Positions 7,473 to 16,017 of a stretch of 26,786 nt of DNA are shown here, piece after piece (positions within the stretch are counted from its first letter, which is position 1; the number at the start of each line of letters is the position of its first letter). The position numbers were made by a program, and so were the translations under genes. The notes beneath the pieces are model-generated. The model made no database searches and was not told where the DNA came from. It saw only the letters and a program-made list of their open reading frames with translations. This DNA comes from a virus, in UHGV virus genome UHGV-0243142; one strand, written 5' to 3'.

Positions 7473-9590
7473 ATGCGACAGGCCACGGCGGCGGAGCTAA
7501 GAAAAAACACTGCCGGGATCATCAGAGCACCGCGTCGAATGCCTGTAGCCGAAGCCGTACATAAATATATGCGTGTTCCGGTCGGCGTGGGTAACTCTGT
7601 TGAGTGGGATCCTAATCTTGCCCCTTATGTTGTGGAGCCGATGAACTGCCTGGCATCACGCGAATATGATGCTGTCATTTTTGTTGGCCCTGCCCGAACG
7701 GGTAAAACCATTGGTCTGATTGATGGCTGGGTGGTGTACAACGTTGTCTGCGATCCGTCTGACATGCTCATCATTCAGATGACGGAAGAAAAAGCGCGTG
7801 AACACTCAAAAAAACGTCTGGCCCGAACATTTCGTGTCAGCCCGGAGGTGGCATGCCGGCTGAGTCCTTCACGCAATGACAACAACGTCCATGACCGGAC
7901 TTTCCTTGCAGGGAACTACCTGAAGATAGGCTGGCCGTCTATCAACATCATGTCCTCCTCAGATTTTAAGTGTGTGGCGCTGACGGATTACGATCGCTTC
8001 CCGGAAGATATCGACGGGGAAGGGGACGGATTTTCGCTTGCTTCAAAACGTACCACCACCTTTATGTCGGCGGGGATGACGCTGGTCGAGAGTTCACCGG
8101 GCAGGGAAATCACCAATACAAAGTGGCGGAGAAAGTCACCTCACGAAGCTCCTCCCACGACCGGGATCCTTTCTTTATATAACCGCGGCGATCGTCGTCG
8201 CTGGTACTGGCCATGTCCACATTGCGGGGAATACTTTCAACCGGCCATGGAGGCGATGACAGGCTACCGGGAAACGTCTGACCCGGTAAAGGCCAGCGAA
8301 GCGGCGCATATTGATTGTCCGCATTGTAGCGGCATGATTACCGCCGACAGGAAGCGGGAACTGAACGGAAAGGGTGTCTGGTTGAGAGAGGGACAGACTA
8401 TCGACCGTGAGGGCAATATCACCGGAGAAGCCCGACGCTCGCGCATTGCCTCGTTCTGGATGGAGGGACCAGCGGCGGCATACCAGACATGGGCGCAACT
8501 GGTCTACAAATTACTGACGGCGGAACAGGACTATGAGGCCACTGGAAGCGAAGAAACGCTCAAGACGGTAATAAATACTGACTGGGGGCTTCCTTATCTT
8601 CCCCGTGCAGCCAGTGAGCAGCGACGTGCTGACGTGCTGATGCAGCGGGCAGAAGACTATGGCAAACGGCTTGTGCCGCCGAAAGTCCGTTTTCTTCTGG
8701 CGTCGGTGGATGTGCAGGGCGGGAAGAAGCGCCGTTTTGTCGTCCAGATCATCGGGTACGGTGAAAACGGCGAACGCTGGCTGGTGGACCGTTATAACAT
8801 CCGCCAGTCCCTGCGTTGTGATGAAAATGGTGAGGCGCAGCAGGTGCATCCCGGATCATATCCGGAAGACTGGCAACTGCTCATCACGGATGTCCTCGAA
8901 AAAACTTATACGTTGCAGTCAGACCCTTCGCGACGGATGCCCATTCTTGCAATGGCTGTCGACAGCGGCGGGGAAGATGGGGTAACGGATAACGCCTATA
9001 AATTCTGGCGCCAGTGTCGTCGTGACGGACTGGGTAAACGGGTTTACCTGATAAAAGGTGACAGCACCCGACGCCAGAAAATCATTACCAAAACGCACCC
9101 TGACAACACAGGCCGAAGCGATCGCCGGGCGGATGCGCGTGGTGAGGTTCCGGTATATCTGTTGCAGACAGACCTGCTGAAAGATCAGCTCAGTAACAAC
9201 CTTGAGCGTGAAACACCCGGTGCCGGGTATATCCATTTTCCTGACTGGCTGGGGGAGTGGTTCTACGAAGAACTGACCTACGAAGAACGCGGTACGGACG
9301 GAAAATGGCGCAAGCCCGGAAAAGGCAATAACGAAGCCTTTGACCTTTTCTGTTATGCCCACGCCGTCGCTGTCCTGCGTGGTTATGAAAAAATCCGGGA
9401 CTGGGAACAGCCCCCGGCATGGGCTGCCGCTCAGGAGAGTAATTCAAACATCATTGACGGGGAGCGCCCCAGGGAGATTGCTGTGAAAAAAGCGGTACCT
9501 GTACGTTCGTCTCCTGTTTCTGTAACTGAACAGCCCAGCCCGCTTTCTGGTGGCTGGCTGGGTGTCAGTGACAACGGAGGCTGGCTGTGA
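7473..9590 (+). CDS. Terminase large subunit (lambda gpA family)
   Basis: 705 aa ORF with GAGGAG 6 nt upstream. Contains a Walker A-like motif FVGPARTGKT and is of gpA-like length and position. Confidence 0.85.
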   Translation: MRQATAAELRKNTAGIIRAPRRMPVAEAVHKYMRVPVGVGNSVEWDPNLAPYVVEPMNCLASREYDAVIFVGPARTGKTIGLIDGWVVYNVVCDPSDMLIIQMTEEKAREHSKKRLARTFRVSPEVACRLSPSRNDNNVHDRTFLAGNYLKIGWPSINIMSSSDFKCVALTDYDRFPEDIDGEGDGFSLASKRTTTFMSAGMTLVESSPGREITNTKWRRKSPHEAPPTTGILSLYNRGDRRRWYWPCPHCGEYFQPAMEAMTGYRETSDPVKASEAAHIDCPHCSGMITADRKRELNGKGVWLREGQTIDREGNITGEARRSRIASFWMEGPAAAYQTWAQLVYKLLTAEQDYEATGSEETLKTVINTDWGLPYLPRAASEQRRADVLMQRAEDYGKRLVPPKVRFLLASVDVQGGKKRRFVVQIIGYGENGERWLVDRYNIRQSLRCDENGEAQQVHPGSYPEDWQLLITDVLEKTYTLQSDPSRRMPILAMAVDSGGEDGVTDNAYKFWRQCRRDGLGKRVYLIKGDSTRRQKIITKTHPDNTGRSDRRADARGEVPVYLLQTDLLKDQLSNNLERETPGAGYIHFPDWLGEWFYEELTYEERGTDGKWRKPGKGNNEAFDLFCYAHAVAVLRGYEKIRDWEQPPAWAAAQESNSNIIDGERPREIAVKKAVPVRSSPVSVTEQPSPLSGGWLGVSDNGGWL

Positions 9591-9802
9591 CGAAATCAGA
9601 AATTCAGCAGATGCTGGTAACAGTACGCCAGGCATACCGTGATTCCCTGGACGGGAAAAGTGTGTCTTTTACGGGCGTAAATGGTCGCGCCATAACTAAC
9701 CATGATCCCGTGGCGCTTCGCAGAGAGCTGGAATACTGGGAAAAACGTTGGGTTGCCGTGAACCGTCGCGGTGGATCTTTCAAACTCGCCAGATTTAATT
9801 AA
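9587..9802 (+). CDS. Head-tail joining protein (lambda gpW-like)
   Basis: 71 aa ORF with GTG start overlapping the terminase stop (GTGA) and GGAGG 8 nt upstream. Size and position between large terminase and portal match lambda W. Confidence 0.65.
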   Translation: MTKSEIQQMLVTVRQAYRDSLDGKSVSFTGVNGRAITNHDPVALRRELEYWEKRWVAVNRRGGSFKLARFN

Positions 9803-9810
9803 GGTCTTCC

Positions 9811-11322
9811 ATGGGTATTTTCGACAGAGCACTTGGTGCAATTGCGCCAGGGTGGGCAGTTGCGCGCGCCAGAAACAAAATGCTGTTGCAGGCATACGAT
9901 GCGGCACAGCCTTCCCGGCTTAATAAAACGAAGCGCGAGAGCCGCGCGGCTGACACTGCTGTTGGTGTTGCAGGGATATCACTGCGCGAGCAGGCGCGGG
10001 CGCTGGATGAAGACCATGACATTGTAATTGGTCTGCTGGATAAGCTCGAGGAGCGGGTGATTGGTGCCCAGGGGATTCAGGTTGAACCGCAGCCACTGGG
10101 GATGGACGGCAAACTGCATGAAGAATTTGCGGCAAAGATTTCCGCGCTCTGGTCCGAATGGTCAGTTCGCCCGGAAGTGACCGGGATGTTTACCCGTCCG
10201 GAAGCGGAACGGCTGGCGCTGCGTTCCGCACTGCGTGATGGTGAAATTTTTACCCAGCTTGTGAGAGGGCCAGTTGCTGGTCTGACTCACTCGACCAGTG
10301 TGCCGTTTTCTCTGGAGTTGCTCGAGGCCGACTTTGTGCCGATGAACCTGAACAGCACCTCGGGGCAGCAGATCCGTCAGGGTATTATTGTGAATAACTG
10401 GGGCCGTCCGACAGGCTACCGGGTTTATAAATTCCATCCGGCCAACATGACGCGTTTTAGCGCAGAACTGAAAACTGTTTCTGCTGAGAATATGCTGCAT
10501 CTCGCGCAGCGAAAACGTCTCCATCAGTTACGCGGGGTGAGTCTGTTACACGGCGTGATCCGCCGCCTTGGCGACATTAAGGATTACGAAGAGAGTGAGC
10601 GCGTGGCCGCAAGAATCGCTGCTGCGCTGGGCTTTTATATCAAGAGAGGTGATGCCGCTACTTTCCCGCAAGAAGATGACTGGAAGCCGTCAGAAAATAA
10701 ATACCGCTATTTTGATATCGCGCCCGGGATGATTTTTGACGATCTGGCACCGGGCGAAGATCTGGGCATGGTCGAGTCCAATCGTCCGAATGTCCATCTT
10801 CATGAGTTTCGCAACGGGCAATTACGTGCTGTTGCCGCCGGAAGCCGGGGAAGCTATTCCAGCATTGCCCGTGACTACAATGGCACATACAGCGCCCAGC
10901 GCCAGGAACTGGTGGAAAGCTACGAAGGCTATAACGTCCTGCAGCAATGGTTTGTTGGCCAGCACAGTCGCCCGGTATACCGCGCCTGGCTGGCGATGGC
11001 GCTGTTAACGACAGATATCCCACCGGATGTGGATCGAACAACCCTCTTTAATGCGACCTATCTTGGCCCGGTTATGCCGTGGATTGACCCTGTAAAAGAG
11101 GCAATGGCCTGGCGGGGAATTGTGCGCGGTGGTGCGGGAACAGAAGCGGAATGGATCCGCGCCCGCGGGCAATCCCCCCAGGAGGTGAAGCGACAGCGTA
11201 TGCGTGAAACCGAATTCAACCGAGAAAACGGGCTGGTGTTCGATTCAGACGCCGCCAACGATAAAGGAGTGCTCCCTGATGCAGCAAATGATAAGCCCGC
11301 CCCGTCGCGGGACGATGATTAA
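9811..11322 (+). CDS. Portal protein (lambda gpB family)
   Basis: 503 aa ORF immediately after the W-like gene. Length and position fit a lambda-type portal; the C-terminus is acidic. Confidence 0.85.
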   Translation: MGIFDRALGAIAPGWAVARARNKMLLQAYDAAQPSRLNKTKRESRAADTAVGVAGISLREQARALDEDHDIVIGLLDKLEERVIGAQGIQVEPQPLGMDGKLHEEFAAKISALWSEWSVRPEVTGMFTRPEAERLALRSALRDGEIFTQLVRGPVAGLTHSTSVPFSLELLEADFVPMNLNSTSGQQIRQGIIVNNWGRPTGYRVYKFHPANMTRFSAELKTVSAENMLHLAQRKRLHQLRGVSLLHGVIRRLGDIKDYEESERVAARIAAALGFYIKRGDAATFPQEDDWKPSENKYRYFDIAPGMIFDDLAPGEDLGMVESNRPNVHLHEFRNGQLRAVAAGSRGSYSSIARDYNGTYSAQRQELVESYEGYNVLQQWFVGQHSRPVYRAWLAMALLTTDIPPDVDRTTLFNATYLGPVMPWIDPVKEAMAWRGIVRGGAGTEAEWIRARGQSPQEVKRQRMRETEFNRENGLVFDSDAANDKGVLPDAANDKPAPSRDDD

Positions 11323-13381
11323 TCCCTGCGCCAGTGTGGCTGGTATCGATGCAGCAAACGGTCAGTGCTGGTATGAGATACGCGCCCTGGCTGCAGGGCG
11401 TGTGGAAATATTTCTCTATGACGTGATCGGCGGCTGGGGGATTACCGCTCAGCAGTTCGTCTCCGACTGTAAGGAAGCCGGGGTGTTTGAGGCCAGCGCC
11501 GTTGATCTGCATATCCACAGCCCTGGCGGGGATGTGATGCAGGGATTTGCCATCTTTAACACCTTGTCCCGTCTGAAGGCGAAGCTGGATATCTGGGTGG
11601 ACGGCGTGGCTGCCAGTATGGCTTCAATGATTGTCTGCCTGCCCGGTGCCACGGTGCATATGCCGGAAAATGCCTGGCTGATGGTACACAAGCCGTGGGG
11701 TGGGATCGCCGGAGATTCCGATGATATGCGTGACTACGCTGCCTGGCTTGATCGTAATGAAGCGCTGATGCTCAGTGCCTACATGAACAAGACCGGGCTG
11801 GGGCAGGAAGAACTGGAGGCGATGCTGAAAGCTGAAACCTGGCTTAATGGCGCGGAGGCGGTGGAAAAAGGTTTCGCTGACACGCTTGAACCAGAACTGC
11901 AGGCCGCGGCCTGTGTGAATCAAAATAAACTGAAGGATTACCAGAATATGCCAGAACAGATTAACAACCTTTTTGGGCCGCGCGCCGAAGCCCCTGCAAG
12001 TCAGCCGCAACCCGCACAAAACCCGGCTCCTCAGGCCGCAAATAACCCACCGGCACCGCAACCCGCCCAGCAACCACTGGCAGGAAATATCGACATTACC
12101 GCACTGGCCGCCCAGCTCCAGCAGCAGATGCAGGCAGCGAATACTGAACGAGTCAGCGCAGTTTCTGCTGTGTTTGATGCGTTTCCTGCTTTCGGCTCGC
12201 TGAAAGCAGAATGTATCACGGATATTTCCTGCTCAGCGGAACAGGCCCGTACCAAATTGCTCAATGCGCTGGCGGCAGGGACTACCCCGAGTGCCGGACC
12301 GGGTGCAGTTCACATCCATGCGGGTAACGGGAACATTGTTGGTGATTCCATTCGTGCAGCGGTAATGAACCGTGCGGGCTATGCGCAGGCGGAAAAAGAT
12401 AACGCCTACAACGGGTATACCCTGCGCGAACTGGCCCGCGCCTCGCTGGTGGATCGTGGTATCGGTATTTCTGGTGTCGGTACAGCACAGGCGATGGTTG
12501 GGCTGGCGTTCACCCACAGCAGCAGCGATTTCGGCAATATCCTGATGGATGTGGCGCATAAGGCGGCATTGCTTGGCTGGGATGAGGCCAGCGAAACATT
12601 CGAACAGTGGACCCGTAAAGGCACACTCACCGATTTCAAAACCGCGCACCGCGTTGGCCTGGAATCACTGGCATCGCTGCGTAAGGTTCGCGCCGGGGCG
12701 GAATATAAATATGTCACCATTAAAGATCGCGGTGAGCCGATTGCACTGGCCACCTATGGTGAGCTTTTCAGCATTGACCGCCAGACTATCATCAACGACG
12801 ACCTGGATATGCTGACGCGTATCCCGCAGGCAATGGGGCTTGCTGCGCGAGCTACTGTCGGCGATCTGGTCTGGGCTGTACTGACCAGCAACCCGAAAAT
12901 GTCGGACGGTAAGCCGTTGTTCCACGCCGATCACGGCAACCTTGTTGCAGCCGATCTGACTATTGAAGGGCTGGATACTGCGCGTAAGGCAATGCTGCTG
13001 CAAAAATCCGGCGATCGCCGTCTGAATATTCGTCCGGCCTACATGCTGACGCCAGTGGCAATTGAGTCACGGGCAAACCAGCTGATTAAATCCGCCAGTG
13101 TACCGGGTGCAGACGCGAACAGCGGGATCGTTAACCCGATCCAGAACTTTGTGACCGTGGCTTCTGAGGCCCGCCTGGATGACAGCAGCCCGACCGATTA
13201 TTACCTGACCGCTGCGCAGGGGCGCGACACCATTGAAGTGGCGTATCTCGATGGTATCGACACGCCATATCTGGAACAGCAGCAGGGCTTCACTGTGGAC
13301 GGCGCGGCATTCAAGGTGCGCATTGATGCGGGGGTGGCTCCGCTCGACTGGCGCGGGCTGGTTAAAGTCACCAAAAAATAA
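11279..13381 (+). CDS. Fused head maturation protease (ClpP/S49-like) - scaffold - major capsid protein
   Basis: AAGGAG lies 9 nt upstream of ATG 11279, which overlaps the portal 3' end. The N-terminal third (IFLYDVIGGWGI...HIHSPGGDV...VDGVAASMASMI) is ClpP/S49 protease-like. A Pro/Gln/Ala-rich low-complexity linker follows (about 11950-12130), then a roughly 400 aa capsid-like domain. This fused arrangement occurs in Gifsy-type prophages (from memory). Confidence 0.75.
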   Translation: MQQMISPPRRGTMINPCASVAGIDAANGQCWYEIRALAAGRVEIFLYDVIGGWGITAQQFVSDCKEAGVFEASAVDLHIHSPGGDVMQGFAIFNTLSRLKAKLDIWVDGVAASMASMIVCLPGATVHMPENAWLMVHKPWGGIAGDSDDMRDYAAWLDRNEALMLSAYMNKTGLGQEELEAMLKAETWLNGAEAVEKGFADTLEPELQAAACVNQNKLKDYQNMPEQINNLFGPRAEAPASQPQPAQNPAPQAANNPPAPQPAQQPLAGNIDITALAAQLQQQMQAANTERVSAVSAVFDAFPAFGSLKAECITDISCSAEQARTKLLNALAAGTTPSAGPGAVHIHAGNGNIVGDSIRAAVMNRAGYAQAEKDNAYNGYTLRELARASLVDRGIGISGVGTAQAMVGLAFTHSSSDFGNILMDVAHKAALLGWDEASETFEQWTRKGTLTDFKTAHRVGLESLASLRKVRAGAEYKYVTIKDRGEPIALATYGELFSIDRQTIINDDLDMLTRIPQAMGLAARATVGDLVWAVLTSNPKMSDGKPLFHADHGNLVAADLTIEGLDTARKAMLLQKSGDRRLNIRPAYMLTPVAIESRANQLIKSASVPGADANSGIVNPIQNFVTVASEARLDDSSPTDYYLTAAQGRDTIEVAYLDGIDTPYLEQQQGFTVDGAAFKVRIDAGVAPLDWRGLVKVTKK

Positions 13382-13382
13382 T

Positions 13383-13406
13383 GACCGCCGCCTGGCGGTT
13401 TTTTTA
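13383..13406 (+). terminator. Intrinsic terminator or attenuator after the capsid gene
   Basis: Hairpin ACCGCC (13384-13389) / GGCGGT (13394-13399), loop GCCT, then T7. A second weaker hairpin AGGCG / CGCCT with a T-rich tail follows at about 13411-13435. Confidence 0.5.
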
Positions 13407-13453
13407 TCCCTGAAGGCGGCGCTGGTCGCCTTTTCCTTTTATGGAGAAAAAAC

Positions 13454-13789
13454 ATGGCGAATAACTATCAGCAGGACGGTACCACACTGGATTATCACAA
13501 TGCGGGTGTTGATGCCGTTTCATCCGGTGCGCTGGTGGCGGTCGGCGGAATTGCCGGGGTGGCACACAGCGATATTCCTGCTGGCGAGTGGGGAACACTG
13601 CATATGGCCGGTGTTTTTGTGCTGCCTAAAGCGGCAGAAGAAATTGCAGCAGGCCAGAAACTGTATCTGGCTGGCGGCAAGCTGACGGTGGCAAAAGGCG
13701 ATGATGCAACGCCAAATCCGGTTGTCGGTTCCGCCTGGGGAGCAGCTGAGGTGGATAATGCTGATGTTGCCGTCCGCCTGGGGTTCTGA
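13454..13789 (+). CDS. Small capsid-associated protein (DUF2190-like, probable decoration protein)
   Basis: GGAG lies 7 nt upstream of the ATG. 111 aa, Gly/Ala-rich (ALVAVGGIAGVAHSDIPAGEWGTLHMAGVFVLPKAA), directly after the capsid gene where decoration proteins are encoded. Confidence 0.55.
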   Translation: MANNYQQDGTTLDYHNAGVDAVSSGALVAVGGIAGVAHSDIPAGEWGTLHMAGVFVLPKAAEEIAAGQKLYLAGGKLTVAKGDDATPNPVVGSAWGAAEVDNADVAVRLGF

Positions 13790-14145
13790 TGAGCCGGTTC
13801 CGGGAACGTTTGGCTAAAGCAGATGCCCGGATTAACCGGGCGTTTGCCGAAGAAGTCCCTGCATGCCTGCAAACGGGTGAAGGCCCGCGTCTGGTGACCG
13901 TGATTTTTGAATCACCGGATGCGCTGTCGGGTGTACCGGGTGGCGGGGAAATTCAGAACCATTCCCCGGCGTTCAGTGCAATGACTGCGGATATTTCCGG
14001 CCTCGAAAAACATGACGGTGTGGTGATCAACACCATCCCTTACCGGGTGACACATATCGGCGCGGATGAAGAAGGGCGGACCCGCGTCACGCTGGCATAT
14101 GGGGAACCCGGCAAAACACAGCCTCAGATCGATAAATGGAGCTGA
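13789..14145 (+). CDS. Putative head-tail attachment protein (lambda FII-like by position and size)
   Basis: 118 aa ORF whose start overlaps the upstream stop (TGATG). Follows the capsid and decoration genes; lambda FII is 117 aa (from memory). No diagnostic motif recognised. Confidence 0.4.
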   Translation: MSRFRERLAKADARINRAFAEEVPACLQTGEGPRLVTVIFESPDALSGVPGGGEIQNHSPAFSAMTADISGLEKHDGVVINTIPYRVTHIGADEEGRTRVTLAYGEPGKTQPQIDKWS

Positions 14146-14146
14146 T

Positions 14147-14803
14147 ATGGCGCGGGAGTCTCGACTGCGACGGGATTTACCCGTCGATATTGATGTGGAT
14201 GTTATCTGGCGAATTGCGGACAGTATCGGTGCGACGCAAAAACAGTTCCGTGCAGCATACTCGCGCGCGCTCAGGCGTACTGCCGCCACGCTGCGAAAGA
14301 AAGCGATGGCGGATCTGAAAGACGGGCTGGCCCCACGCAGTATGGATCTGGTCCGGCGCCGTCTGCTGTCTTTTCGCCTGGACAGGGGATCGCAACTGGA
14401 TAACTTCCGGCTCTGGTTCGGGCTGAATGCCATTAAGGTGAAAGACCTTAAAGGACGAATCAACGGGCGGCTGCGACCGCACCATACCCGGCGTGACCGC
14501 AACACGGGGCGTTTTATTAAAGCACGCCGCCAGGCAGATAACGCCGGATTTTCCCCGAAAGGGAATCTGCTGAGCGAACGGTCGTTTGAAAACGGGGAGG
14601 TGTCCCGTTCAAAACGGGATAATCGCCGGACGGTGGTTATTCGCGATCCCCTGAGCCGCCGGACACGCGAAGCAGAAATGGATATCTACGAACCGATGCT
14701 GAACTACATCGAGGACAACGCATTTGCGGAAGCGATGGAGATTTTTATGCATCACTTTGAAACCGACATTCGCGGGCGCGTAAAAGCCCGCATTTCTGTC
14801 TGA
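14147..14803 (+). CDS. Structural-module protein of unknown function (Arg-rich; possibly gpZ-like neck protein)
   Basis: GGAG precedes ATG 14147. 218 aa, very basic (many Arg). Lies between head and tail modules in the position of lambda Z. Confidence 0.35.
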   Translation: MARESRLRRDLPVDIDVDVIWRIADSIGATQKQFRAAYSRALRRTAATLRKKAMADLKDGLAPRSMDLVRRRLLSFRLDRGSQLDNFRLWFGLNAIKVKDLKGRINGRLRPHHTRRDRNTGRFIKARRQADNAGFSPKGNLLSERSFENGEVSRSKRDNRRTVVIRDPLSRRTREAEMDIYEPMLNYIEDNAFAEAMEIFMHHFETDIRGRVKARISV

Positions 14804-14814
14804 GGTAACGAACG

Positions 14815-15369
14815 ATGGCCGAGCCACTGTTGCTGGGGCGGTATCACGATGCCGTGACTGACGCATTAAAAAAAATCGGATGGGTGCGTGATGCCGGTGC
14901 GTATCCGGAAAGAAATGTTCCCCGCTTTTCGGGCCTGACCACGCCCGCGGTGTATTTCTCGATTAACAGCTGGGAACAGGGCGGAGGTAATGAGGGGCAA
15001 CTGGGCGTTAATTTAACCTGTGATCTCTTCGTGGTGGTGGATGCTGCCGGATCGGGTGTGAGTCAGCCTGAGATTTTTGTCAGAACCGCTGCGGCCGATA
15101 TTACCCAGTGGATTGACGGGCAGCAGTTTGGTCTGGGCCATATTGAGCCTGCGGTATTCACCACGGCTGAACGTGATGAGTTTGATCCGCGAATGGATGA
15201 TTATCTGGTCTGGCGTATTTCATTCACCCAGGCGGCTGCATTTGGTACTGACCCCTTTGCAAACAATGGTATGCCTCTGCAGCAGGCCTGGCTGGGTGCA
15301 GCACCTGATACGGGCCGTAATCACGTGGATGACTATCAGCTTATCTGGGAGGCTCAGCCCGATGAGTGA
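14815..15369 (+). CDS. Structural-module protein of unknown function (possible neck / tail-completion protein)
   Basis: 184 aa ORF between the head-completion genes and the baseplate spike gene. Its stop overlaps the next start. No recognisable motif. Confidence 0.35.
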   Translation: MAEPLLLGRYHDAVTDALKKIGWVRDAGAYPERNVPRFSGLTTPAVYFSINSWEQGGGNEGQLGVNLTCDLFVVVDAAGSGVSQPEIFVRTAAADITQWIDGQQFGLGHIEPAVFTTAERDEFDPRMDDYLVWRISFTQAAAFGTDPFANNGMPLQQAWLGAAPDTGRNHVDDYQLIWEAQPDE

Positions 15370-15979
15370 TATCGCAGGCGACCTGCAGCGCAGACTGGCG
15401 AACCTTGTCCGGCGCGGTGTTATCCATTCCGTCAGGCACGATCGCATCCCAAAATGCCGGGTGGATTTGGGGGATATCATCACGACCTGGCTGCCGTTGT
15501 GCCAGGGGTTTTCAGGAACTAACCGGGCGGATTCAAATCCTTATGCCGTGGGGGATGCGGTTACGGTCCTGTCCGAAGCCGGAGAACTCAACAACGGACG
15601 GGTGTTTCCCGGCTGGAACACAGGAAAGCTGCCGGTGCCGGAAGGAAGTGACAGCGAGCACATTACCCGTTACAGCGACGGGACCGAGATCCGTTATGAC
15701 AGGAACGCGCATGCCCTGACGATTACGCTGGCTGATGGTGGAACCTACAAAATTGTCGGTAAAGGCACGCTGGATGGTCCGGTTGAAATTACGGATACCC
15801 TGACAGTCCAGGGCAAAACCCAGATTAATGCCGACACGTCGGTTGCAGGGAATATCGGGGCGTCAAAGGAGATAACGGATAAATCCGGCAGCATGAGCAA
15901 GATACGTGAAGTATTTAACAACCACGATCACCGCGGCGACAGCGGCGGGCTCACCGATAAACCAAATCAGAAAATGTGA
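15362..15979 (+). CDS. Baseplate spike / assembly protein V (P2 gpV family)
   Basis: GGGAGG lies 9 nt upstream; the ATG overlaps the upstream stop. N-terminus LQRRLANLVRRGVIHSV...RVDLGDIITTWLP and C-terminal HDHRGDSGGLT parallel P2 gpV (HKHPGDSGG motif, from memory). Confidence 0.75.
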   Translation: MSDIAGDLQRRLANLVRRGVIHSVRHDRIPKCRVDLGDIITTWLPLCQGFSGTNRADSNPYAVGDAVTVLSEAGELNNGRVFPGWNTGKLPVPEGSDSEHITRYSDGTEIRYDRNAHALTITLADGGTYKIVGKGTLDGPVEITDTLTVQGKTQINADTSVAGNIGASKEITDKSGSMSKIREVFNNHDHRGDSGGLTDKPNQKM

Positions 15980-16000
15980 CCTGCTGCGGCAGGTTTTTTT
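15979..16000 (+). terminator. Intrinsic terminator or attenuator upstream of the sheath gene
   Basis: Hairpin ACCTGC (15979-15984) / GCAGGT (15989-15994), loop TGCG, then T7. Confidence 0.5.
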
Positions 16001-16017
16001 ATGCCTGGAGAAAAAAC

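Follow-up and report, generated by a model that had tools for sequence, protein, structure and literature searches.

A catalogued ClpP-like protease/major capsid protein fusion gene of a Citrobacter/Escherichia coli phage carries a conserved candidate internal start

The protease and coat genes of the Salmonella phage Gifsy-2 have been described as fused (PMC12315714), and protease-scaffold-capsid fusions are a recognized feature of small actinobacteriophages (PMC7302621). In phage HK97, gp5 consists of an N-terminal helical scaffold fused to the capsid protein, and this scaffold is removed by the phage protease (PMC10275583). The Gifsy-2 capsid bears a trimeric decoration protein at its 3-fold axes, and that of HK97 is stabilized by crosslinks, not by a cement protein (PMC8538268). 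Nested protease/scaffold genes are established as well, including gp17/gp17.5 of HFTV1 (bioRxiv 10.64898/2026.09.13.751334). Here, we analyze a stretch of viral DNA of 26,786 nucleotides (nt), UHGV virus genome UHGV-0243142 (hereafter, the window), in which a single open reading frame (ORF) of 700 amino acids (aa) encodes a ClpP-like head protease, a linker, a scaffold-like segment, and a major capsid protein. The phage is a temperate, Chris1-type one of Citrobacter/E. coli, and this ORF is its tripartite capsid gene. Such fusion genes are already catalogued, and correctly named, in public databases; what the comparative evidence suggests is new with respect to the database records examined is a conserved internal ribosome-binding site at Met224 (11933-11950), from which a second, protease-free product is predicted to be made. 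The Gifsy-2 gene (STM1034.3n/STM1033), known as the "tripartite capsid gene" from Effantin et al. 2010 (Virology 402:355), reportedly encodes an N-terminal ClpP-like protease, a central domain of ~200 residues with a possible scaffolding role, and a C-terminal capsid protein, and for the T=7 shell of this phage the HK97 capsid protein and lambda gpD reportedly served as models. The features of the window gene are as follows.

11264-11269, plus strand: Shine-Dalgarno (SD) sequence AAGGAG of the full-length start, 9 nt 5' of ATG 11279
11279-13381, plus strand: full-length fused ORF, 700 aa, 74.9 kDa, encoding ClpP-like protease, linker, scaffold, and major capsid protein (ORF list, NF045540, phrog_133)
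11369-11893, plus strand: ClpP-like (S14) head-maturation protease domain, aa 31-205 (NF045542, PDB ClpP matches, conserved residues)
11615-11617, 11687-11689, and 11834-11836, plus strand: putative catalytic residues Ser113, His137, and Glu186 (where ClpP has Asp), from alignment with the ClpP Ser-His-Asp triad
11933-11937, plus strand: internal SD-like AAGGA, 10 nt 5' of ATG 11948
11948-13381, plus strand: predicted nested ORF from Met224, 477 aa, 50.7 kDa, scaffold and capsid without protease (comparative signature)
11975-12085, plus strand: Pro/Gln/Ala-rich low-complexity linker, aa 233-269 (composition)
12086-12283, plus strand: helical scaffold-like (delta-domain-like) segment, aa 270-335 (conserved in two fusion families)
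12311-12334, plus strand: H-I-x-A-G-N-G-N motif, aa 345-352, candidate maturation cleavage region (conservation)
12443-13369, plus strand: major capsid protein domain, aa 389-697 (Pfam Phage_capsid_4, E value 2.2e-49)

The frame runs from ATG 11279 to the TAA at 13379-13381, that is, 700 codons and a stop, without any internal stop, as the initial annotation of this DNA had stated. The window gene closely parallels that of Gifsy-2 (L003, 22471-24561). A single BLASTP alignment with the Gifsy-2 product spans aa 31-698 of the window protein, with 51% identity over 681 aa through the protease, middle, and capsid domains. Gene order is the same in both phages (gpA-type terminase, small gpW-like gene, lambda-family portal, fused gene, and homologous decoration gene), and the cement protein of the window is 39% identical to the product of the gene lying 3' of the Gifsy-2 capsid gene. 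The Gifsy-2 gene also has the same internal SD and ATG, in the form of an AGGAG, a spacing of 9 nt, and an ATG at Met221. In contrast, its linker differs from that of the window in sequence and length, and Gifsy-2 is a lambdoid siphovirus with a lambda-like, non-contractile tail, whereas the window phage has contractile-tail genes.

The ORF is almost certainly a member of a known family, that of the ClpP-like prohead protease/major capsid protein fusions, with Gifsy-2 as its prototype. It scores 919.9 bits (cutoff 475) against the NCBIfam model NF045540, [quoted passage not shown] with aa 42-698 aligned on profile positions 2-651 of 652. Moreover, it matches phrog_133 end to end (E value 2.8e-284), and it occupies the place that family membership requires, between the genes for the portal (9811-11322) and the cement protein (13454-13789). 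With NF045541, a second protease/capsid fusion model, the score of 378.5 bits is below the cutoff of 525, and only aa 238-697 are aligned. An identical protein (P0001) from Citrobacter freundii is present in NCBI, where it is named as this fusion, and more than 100 clusters of 683-708 aa among those listed are called the same or "Clp protease ClpP." The same 2103-nt coding sequence (CDS) is annotated by RefSeq, with the fusion-protein name, in a 97% identical E. coli prophage (L001), and the DNA of Citrobacter phage Chris1 is 96% identical. Phage records covering more than 80% of the protein number 79, including those of Pseudomonas phages F10 and MD8, E. coli phages mEp213, mEp460, and LLS, several Stx phages, and Hafnia phage yong2. 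Confirmed relatives amount to at least 583 in IMG/VR and 499 in species-representative genomes, and intact fused ORFs are found in Enterobacterales, Pseudomonas, Shewanella, and others, down to 48% identity. Nothing notable sets the window gene apart from NF045540 and phrog_133, for which model and records describe a single product. As first described, the feature is a catalogued gene type, with nothing new beyond its correct annotation.

The comparative evidence for a second start comes from an alignment of 166 intact fused ORFs from other phages and genomes, reduced to 73 representatives at <90% identity, which are 48-100% identical to the window protein. All in-frame alignment columns were scanned for a start codon accompanied by an SD-like motif 4-12 nt upstream, and this combination was found in two columns only, that of the annotated start and that of Met224. 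The latter (ATG 11948-11950), which lies between the end of the protease domain and the start of the linker, is an ATG in all 73 representatives and is preceded by an SD-like motif in 72, with the same geometry as at the annotated start. The other invariant methionines (114, 135, and 572) have such a motif in 0-1 sequences, and SD-like motifs are conserved nowhere else along the gene, the median column frequency being 1.4%. At Met224, the motif is formed by codons 219 and 220. While codon 219 encodes Lys, Glu, or Gln, it is always AAG, GAG, or CAG (67/67), where gene-wide codon usage would lead to an expectation of 27.8 (standard deviation 3.8). Its wobble-G fraction tops those of 51 control columns (median 0.49, next best 0.91), and the adjacent wobble bases vary freely.

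The structure of the RNA points to the same site. The stretch encoding aa 218-231, which is 61% A+T, is the least structured of the gene, with a mean minimum free energy (MFE) of -4.4 to -5.0 kcal/mol, compared with -11.7 +/- 2.1 kcal/mol gene-wide (51-nt window), and next comes the annotated start. For the window sequence alone, local MFE is -3.2 at ATG 11279 and -1.9 at ATG 11948, versus -10 to -19 at other candidate start codons. Pairing with the anti-SD sequence has a mean energy of -6.2 +/- 1.2 kcal/mol at Met224 and -8.4 +/- 2.9 kcal/mol at the first start, whereas the background is -2.2 kcal/mol. On this signature, we consider it likely that the predicted start at Met224 is used in translation, and the gene would then probably give more than one polypeptide, the second being a protease-free scaffold-capsid product. 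A search for a split relative with a capsid gene beginning at the equivalent of Met224 led to Vibrio phage K233, in which a separate ClpP-type protease ends near this point, but the capsid protein there is of another family, so that this case does not bear on the prediction.

A similar site exists in a second fusion family, corresponding to NF045541, in which a Peptidase_S78 (Pfam) protease is joined to homologous scaffold and capsid parts and which has 316 relatives in IMG/VR. An example is the fused gene of Rhodobacter phage RcMeacham (L010, 1526-3568), further loci being L170-L249. As in the window, the S78-type gene follows the portal gene, and its scaffold and capsid parts are homologous to those of the window protein (37% identity over aa 356-696), but the protease is unrelated and the junction motif is PAQAR instead of AGNGN. 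Among 34 representatives, start codon and SD are again combined in two columns only, the annotated start and Met214, directly before the Pro-rich linker, which is an ATG in every sequence and has an SD in 31. The amino acids upstream of Met214 vary (KGKT, KEAP, TRTT, EEAN, and others), and yet an AAGGAG, AAAGGA, or GAGGA persists, which argues that selection acts on the nucleotides at this site. Within the S78-type gene, moreover, only the annotated start is less structured than the Met214 site. That a nested gene pair with an internal ribosome-binding site, at Met224 in the window, has been kept in both of these families, whose proteases (ClpP/S14 and S78) are unrelated, and is unannotated in the database records examined is a possibility that we put forward tentatively.

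As for the upstream start, the column of ATG 11279 is the only one in the N-terminal region where 60% or more of the homologues have a start codon. It is a start codon in 65 of 72 representatives, 50 of which have the SD too. In the window, the AAGGAG of this start has an anti-SD duplex energy of -8.2 kcal/mol, in keeping with the strong site noted in the initial annotation, and the reported overlap with the portal gene is real, the 3' end of that gene and the start of the fused ORF sharing 44 nt. Two other candidates were rejected: GTG 11204, to which the open frame extends 5' (725 aa), is merely where that frame begins, and ATG 11315, which was chosen in the Chris1 record, falls in a column where a start is not conserved. 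Deposited records do differ in this respect, with the gene of Hafnia phage yong2 (L004, 1642-3573) beginning within the protease domain (MIGYWG...) and that of Chris1 (L002, 6209-8275) at the equivalent of window 11315. The column scan supports the column of 11279 over both of these record starts.

The predicted organization resembles that of the established nested genes. In lambda C/Nu3, where the nesting is annotated in the lambda record, in UL26/UL26.5 of herpes simplex virus 1 (HSV-1), and in HFTV1 gp17/gp17.5, an in-frame internal start after the protease gives co-terminal products, and the window gene likewise has, as a sequence signature, a conserved in-frame internal start 3' of the protease domain. 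In those systems, the protease-free product is abundant and the protease-carrying one rarer, and the same logic of protease delivery into the procapsid may apply here. Their protease families differ from that of the window gene, that of lambda being S49. The annotated Nu3 ATG in lambda, used as a single-sequence positive control, has a moderate SD (-6.9 kcal/mol) but no low-structure signal, and thus speaks neither for nor against the approach. In contrast to the window gene, in which the predicted nested product carries both scaffold and capsid, lambda, HSV-1, and HFTV1 have their capsid protein in a separate gene. The predicted 477-aa product has the exact layout of HK97 gp5. However, the S78 protease of HK97, gp4, is encoded by a separate gene, and the capsid protein of the window belongs to the Pfam family Phage_capsid_4, related to Mu gpT.

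Conservation varies along the 700-aa protein, as can be seen from the mean identity of the homologues to the window protein in each segment.

aa 1-30: variable N terminus, 20%
aa 31-205: protease domain, 56%
aa 206-232: short conserved stretch ending in the invariant Met224-Pro225, 41%
aa 233-269: Pro/Ala/Gln-rich linker, 23%
aa 270-335: conserved helical segment, 36%
aa 336-388: junction with the invariant N350-G351-N352, 64%
aa 389-697: capsid domain, 68%

The linker, which is 76% Pro/Gln/Ala compared with 22% in the remaining protein and which is 15-47 aa long across homologues, exists as initially annotated but is narrower than the extent of about 11950-12130 given there. In the helical segment that follows, AlphaFold2 places helices at 273-299, 303-314, and 320-332 with a predicted local distance difference test (pLDDT) score of 62-78, and this is the sole such part of an otherwise poor model. 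The full-length model (mean pLDDT 41.6, predicted template modeling score 0.25), which was built on an alignment of 27 sequences with homologues 75-94% identical, is unusable. In the junction, N350, G351, and N352 are conserved in 73/73 representatives, and the AGNGN motif lies about 28 residues before a conserved TLRELAR segment. The motif is our candidate for the main maturation site because it is invariant, because of this spacing, and because it is replaced by PAQAR in the S78-type family. The capsid-like nature of the C-terminal domain, in the same frame, is borne out by the Phage_capsid_4 match and by a profile of the region from Met224 to the end, which matches the solved Mu-gpT-type capsid proteins 8rkc and 8rkx (E value 3e-9).

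For the fusion family, maturation is generally understood as proteolytic, with a delta-domain-like scaffold, and by homology this would apply here. Building on the architecture, the family membership, the conserved catalytic residues, and the signature that the alignments give for the internal start, and by analogy with Gifsy-2, HK97, lambda C/Nu3, and HSV-1 UL26/UL26.5, we propose the following scheme. Translation from ATG 11279 would give the 75-kDa full-length protein. From ATG 11948 would come a protein of 51 kDa that has scaffold and capsid but lacks the protease, the counterpart of HK97 gp5 together with its delta domain. Since the scaffold and capsid parts are shared, both products could co-assemble on the portal, and the full-length copies would tether their protease domains within the shell through the flexible linker. 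The protease would then cut, probably close to the invariant AGNGN, and so strip itself, linker, and scaffold from a capsid protein of about 38 kDa that would begin at about aa 350. The shell would expand and subsequently be stabilized by the cement protein (13454-13789), as reported for Gifsy-2. Overall, a tripartite gene read from two starts, with protease-driven maturation, is the explanation that we favor with good confidence.

Alternatively, the gene may have a single product, made from ATG 11279 alone, in which case each capsid subunit would start as a self-processing 75-kDa precursor, with protease and capsid at 1:1, and the purine run and Met224 would reflect a constraint on the protein or a translational pause between domains. 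This is the simplest reading of a single ORF, all records annotate one product, and the upstream SD is the stronger one on average. Several further points weigh against the explanation that we favor. A nested CDS is annotated in none of the database records examined, including those of the E. coli prophage, Chris1, and Gifsy-2. The internal SD of the window is only moderate (AAGGA, -5.5 kcal/mol, spacing of 10 nt), the one upstream being stronger. The motif lies in a run of amino acids around Met224, K/E-D/E-F/Y-x-x-M-P, that the ClpP-type family conserves and that may be important for the protein. The sequences compared are phylogenetically related, so that counts among them are not independent events. 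Use of the internal start is a prediction from its sequence signature, the cleavage position at AGNGN is one that we purely infer, and the HK97-type fold of the C-terminal domain is assigned from sequence profiles, the AlphaFold2 model being too poor. A single product, however, leaves unexplained why codon 219 has a wobble G in 67/67 across three amino acids when adjacent wobble bases vary, and why the S78-type family retains a purine motif and an ATG despite its changed upstream amino acids. Nor does it explain why the Met224 stretch is lowest in RNA structure and most A/T-rich in the ClpP-type family, with the S78-type site likewise low. We therefore regard it as unlikely, though deserving serious consideration.

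If the two-start scheme is true, the internal start would correct the annotation of many hundreds of phage and prophage genes (at least 583 in IMG/VR and 499 in genomes for the ClpP type, and 316 in IMG/VR for the S78 type). It would also resolve a stoichiometry puzzle, in that these phages would avoid making one protease per capsid subunit, and the nested protease/scaffold scheme, known from lambda, herpesviruses, and an archaeal virus, would extend to genes with the capsid protein included. If real and unreported, the internal start would refine a known theme in a modest but useful way.

The N-terminal domain had been annotated as ClpP/S49-like, and domain searches with protease and capsid profiles uphold the ClpP half of that description and the capsid assignment, but not S49. 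The sequence evidence makes the protease ClpP/S14-type: Pfam CLP_protease covers aa 73-202 (E value 2.4e-27), NF045542 covers aa 43-202 (188 bits, cutoff 120), and ClpP chains in the PDB are matched at an E value of 3e-15, with the Ser in AASMA and the His in MVHKPWGG (MxHxPxGG) aligned with those of ClpP. Ser113 and His137 are conserved in 73/73 representatives, and position 186 is Glu in 66 and Asp in 5, and thus acidic in 71 of the 73. An S49 protease akin to lambda gpC would suit a head module that is otherwise lambda-like (gpA terminase and lambda-family portal); the protease of lambda at the same position is annotated S49, and S14 and S49 share a ClpP/crotonase-type fold (MEROPS clan SK). 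Nevertheless, we rejected this assignment as very improbable, considering that Peptidase_S49 gave no match at an E value <= 0.01 in Pfam or NCBIfam searches, that every protease match there and in the PDB was to ClpP/S14, and that the ClpP Ser-His motifs are conserved.

Finally, while damaged copies of the gene are known elsewhere, a frameshift, a sequencing error, or prophage decay having artificially fused a protease gene with a capsid gene in the window is scarcely credible and can be dismissed because intact copies are so widespread, with the frame intact in the window, an identical C. freundii protein in another assembly, 166 independent intact fused ORFs down to 48% identity, a curated NCBIfam model spanning the full length, and the gene carried by the isolated phages Chris1, yong2, F10, mEp213, and LLS. 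The damaged copies are of several kinds. In Citrobacter murliniae CP163158 (L102, 601-2689), a 98% identical copy is frameshifted, with a match of 2089 nt and a longest frame of 442 aa, reflecting either a decaying prophage or an assembly error. The copy in Pseudomonas phage PAN70 is annotated as disrupted, and that of VT1-Sakai is split by IS629. One further protein, P0116, is predicted to have 1022 aa, with a lambda-family portal Pfam domain as well as the ClpP and capsid domains, and is probably a portal gene read through into the fused gene in one assembly, via a frameshift in the 44-nt overlap.

The genes and elements around the fused ORF are listed below.

7473-9590: gpA-type large terminase (profile searches)
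9587-9802: small gpW-like gene (profile searches)
9811-11322, plus strand: lambda-family portal gene (Pfam Phage_portal_2, E value 1.7e-87; TIGR01539, 418.7 bits)
13383-13433, plus strand: two tandem terminator-like hairpins directly after the stop codon (sequence)
13454-13789, plus strand: capsid cement/decoration protein gene (Pfam Phage_cement_2, E value 1.5e-20; phrog_122, "head decoration")
13789-14145: head-closure protein (profile searches)

A T-rich run comes after each of the two hairpins at 13383-13433 (seven T's for the first, TCCTTTT for the second), and in the mEp213 and mEp460 records a rho-independent terminator is annotated at the equivalent place. The hairpins may form a leaky terminator that sets the ratio of capsid to downstream expression in the late operon. 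From 7473 to 26786, the window is a mosaic in which a head module of the lambda/Gifsy-2 type is combined with contractile-tail genes (baseplate V, sheath, and tube), as the annotations of Citrobacter phage Chris1 and of the near-identical E. coli prophage show.

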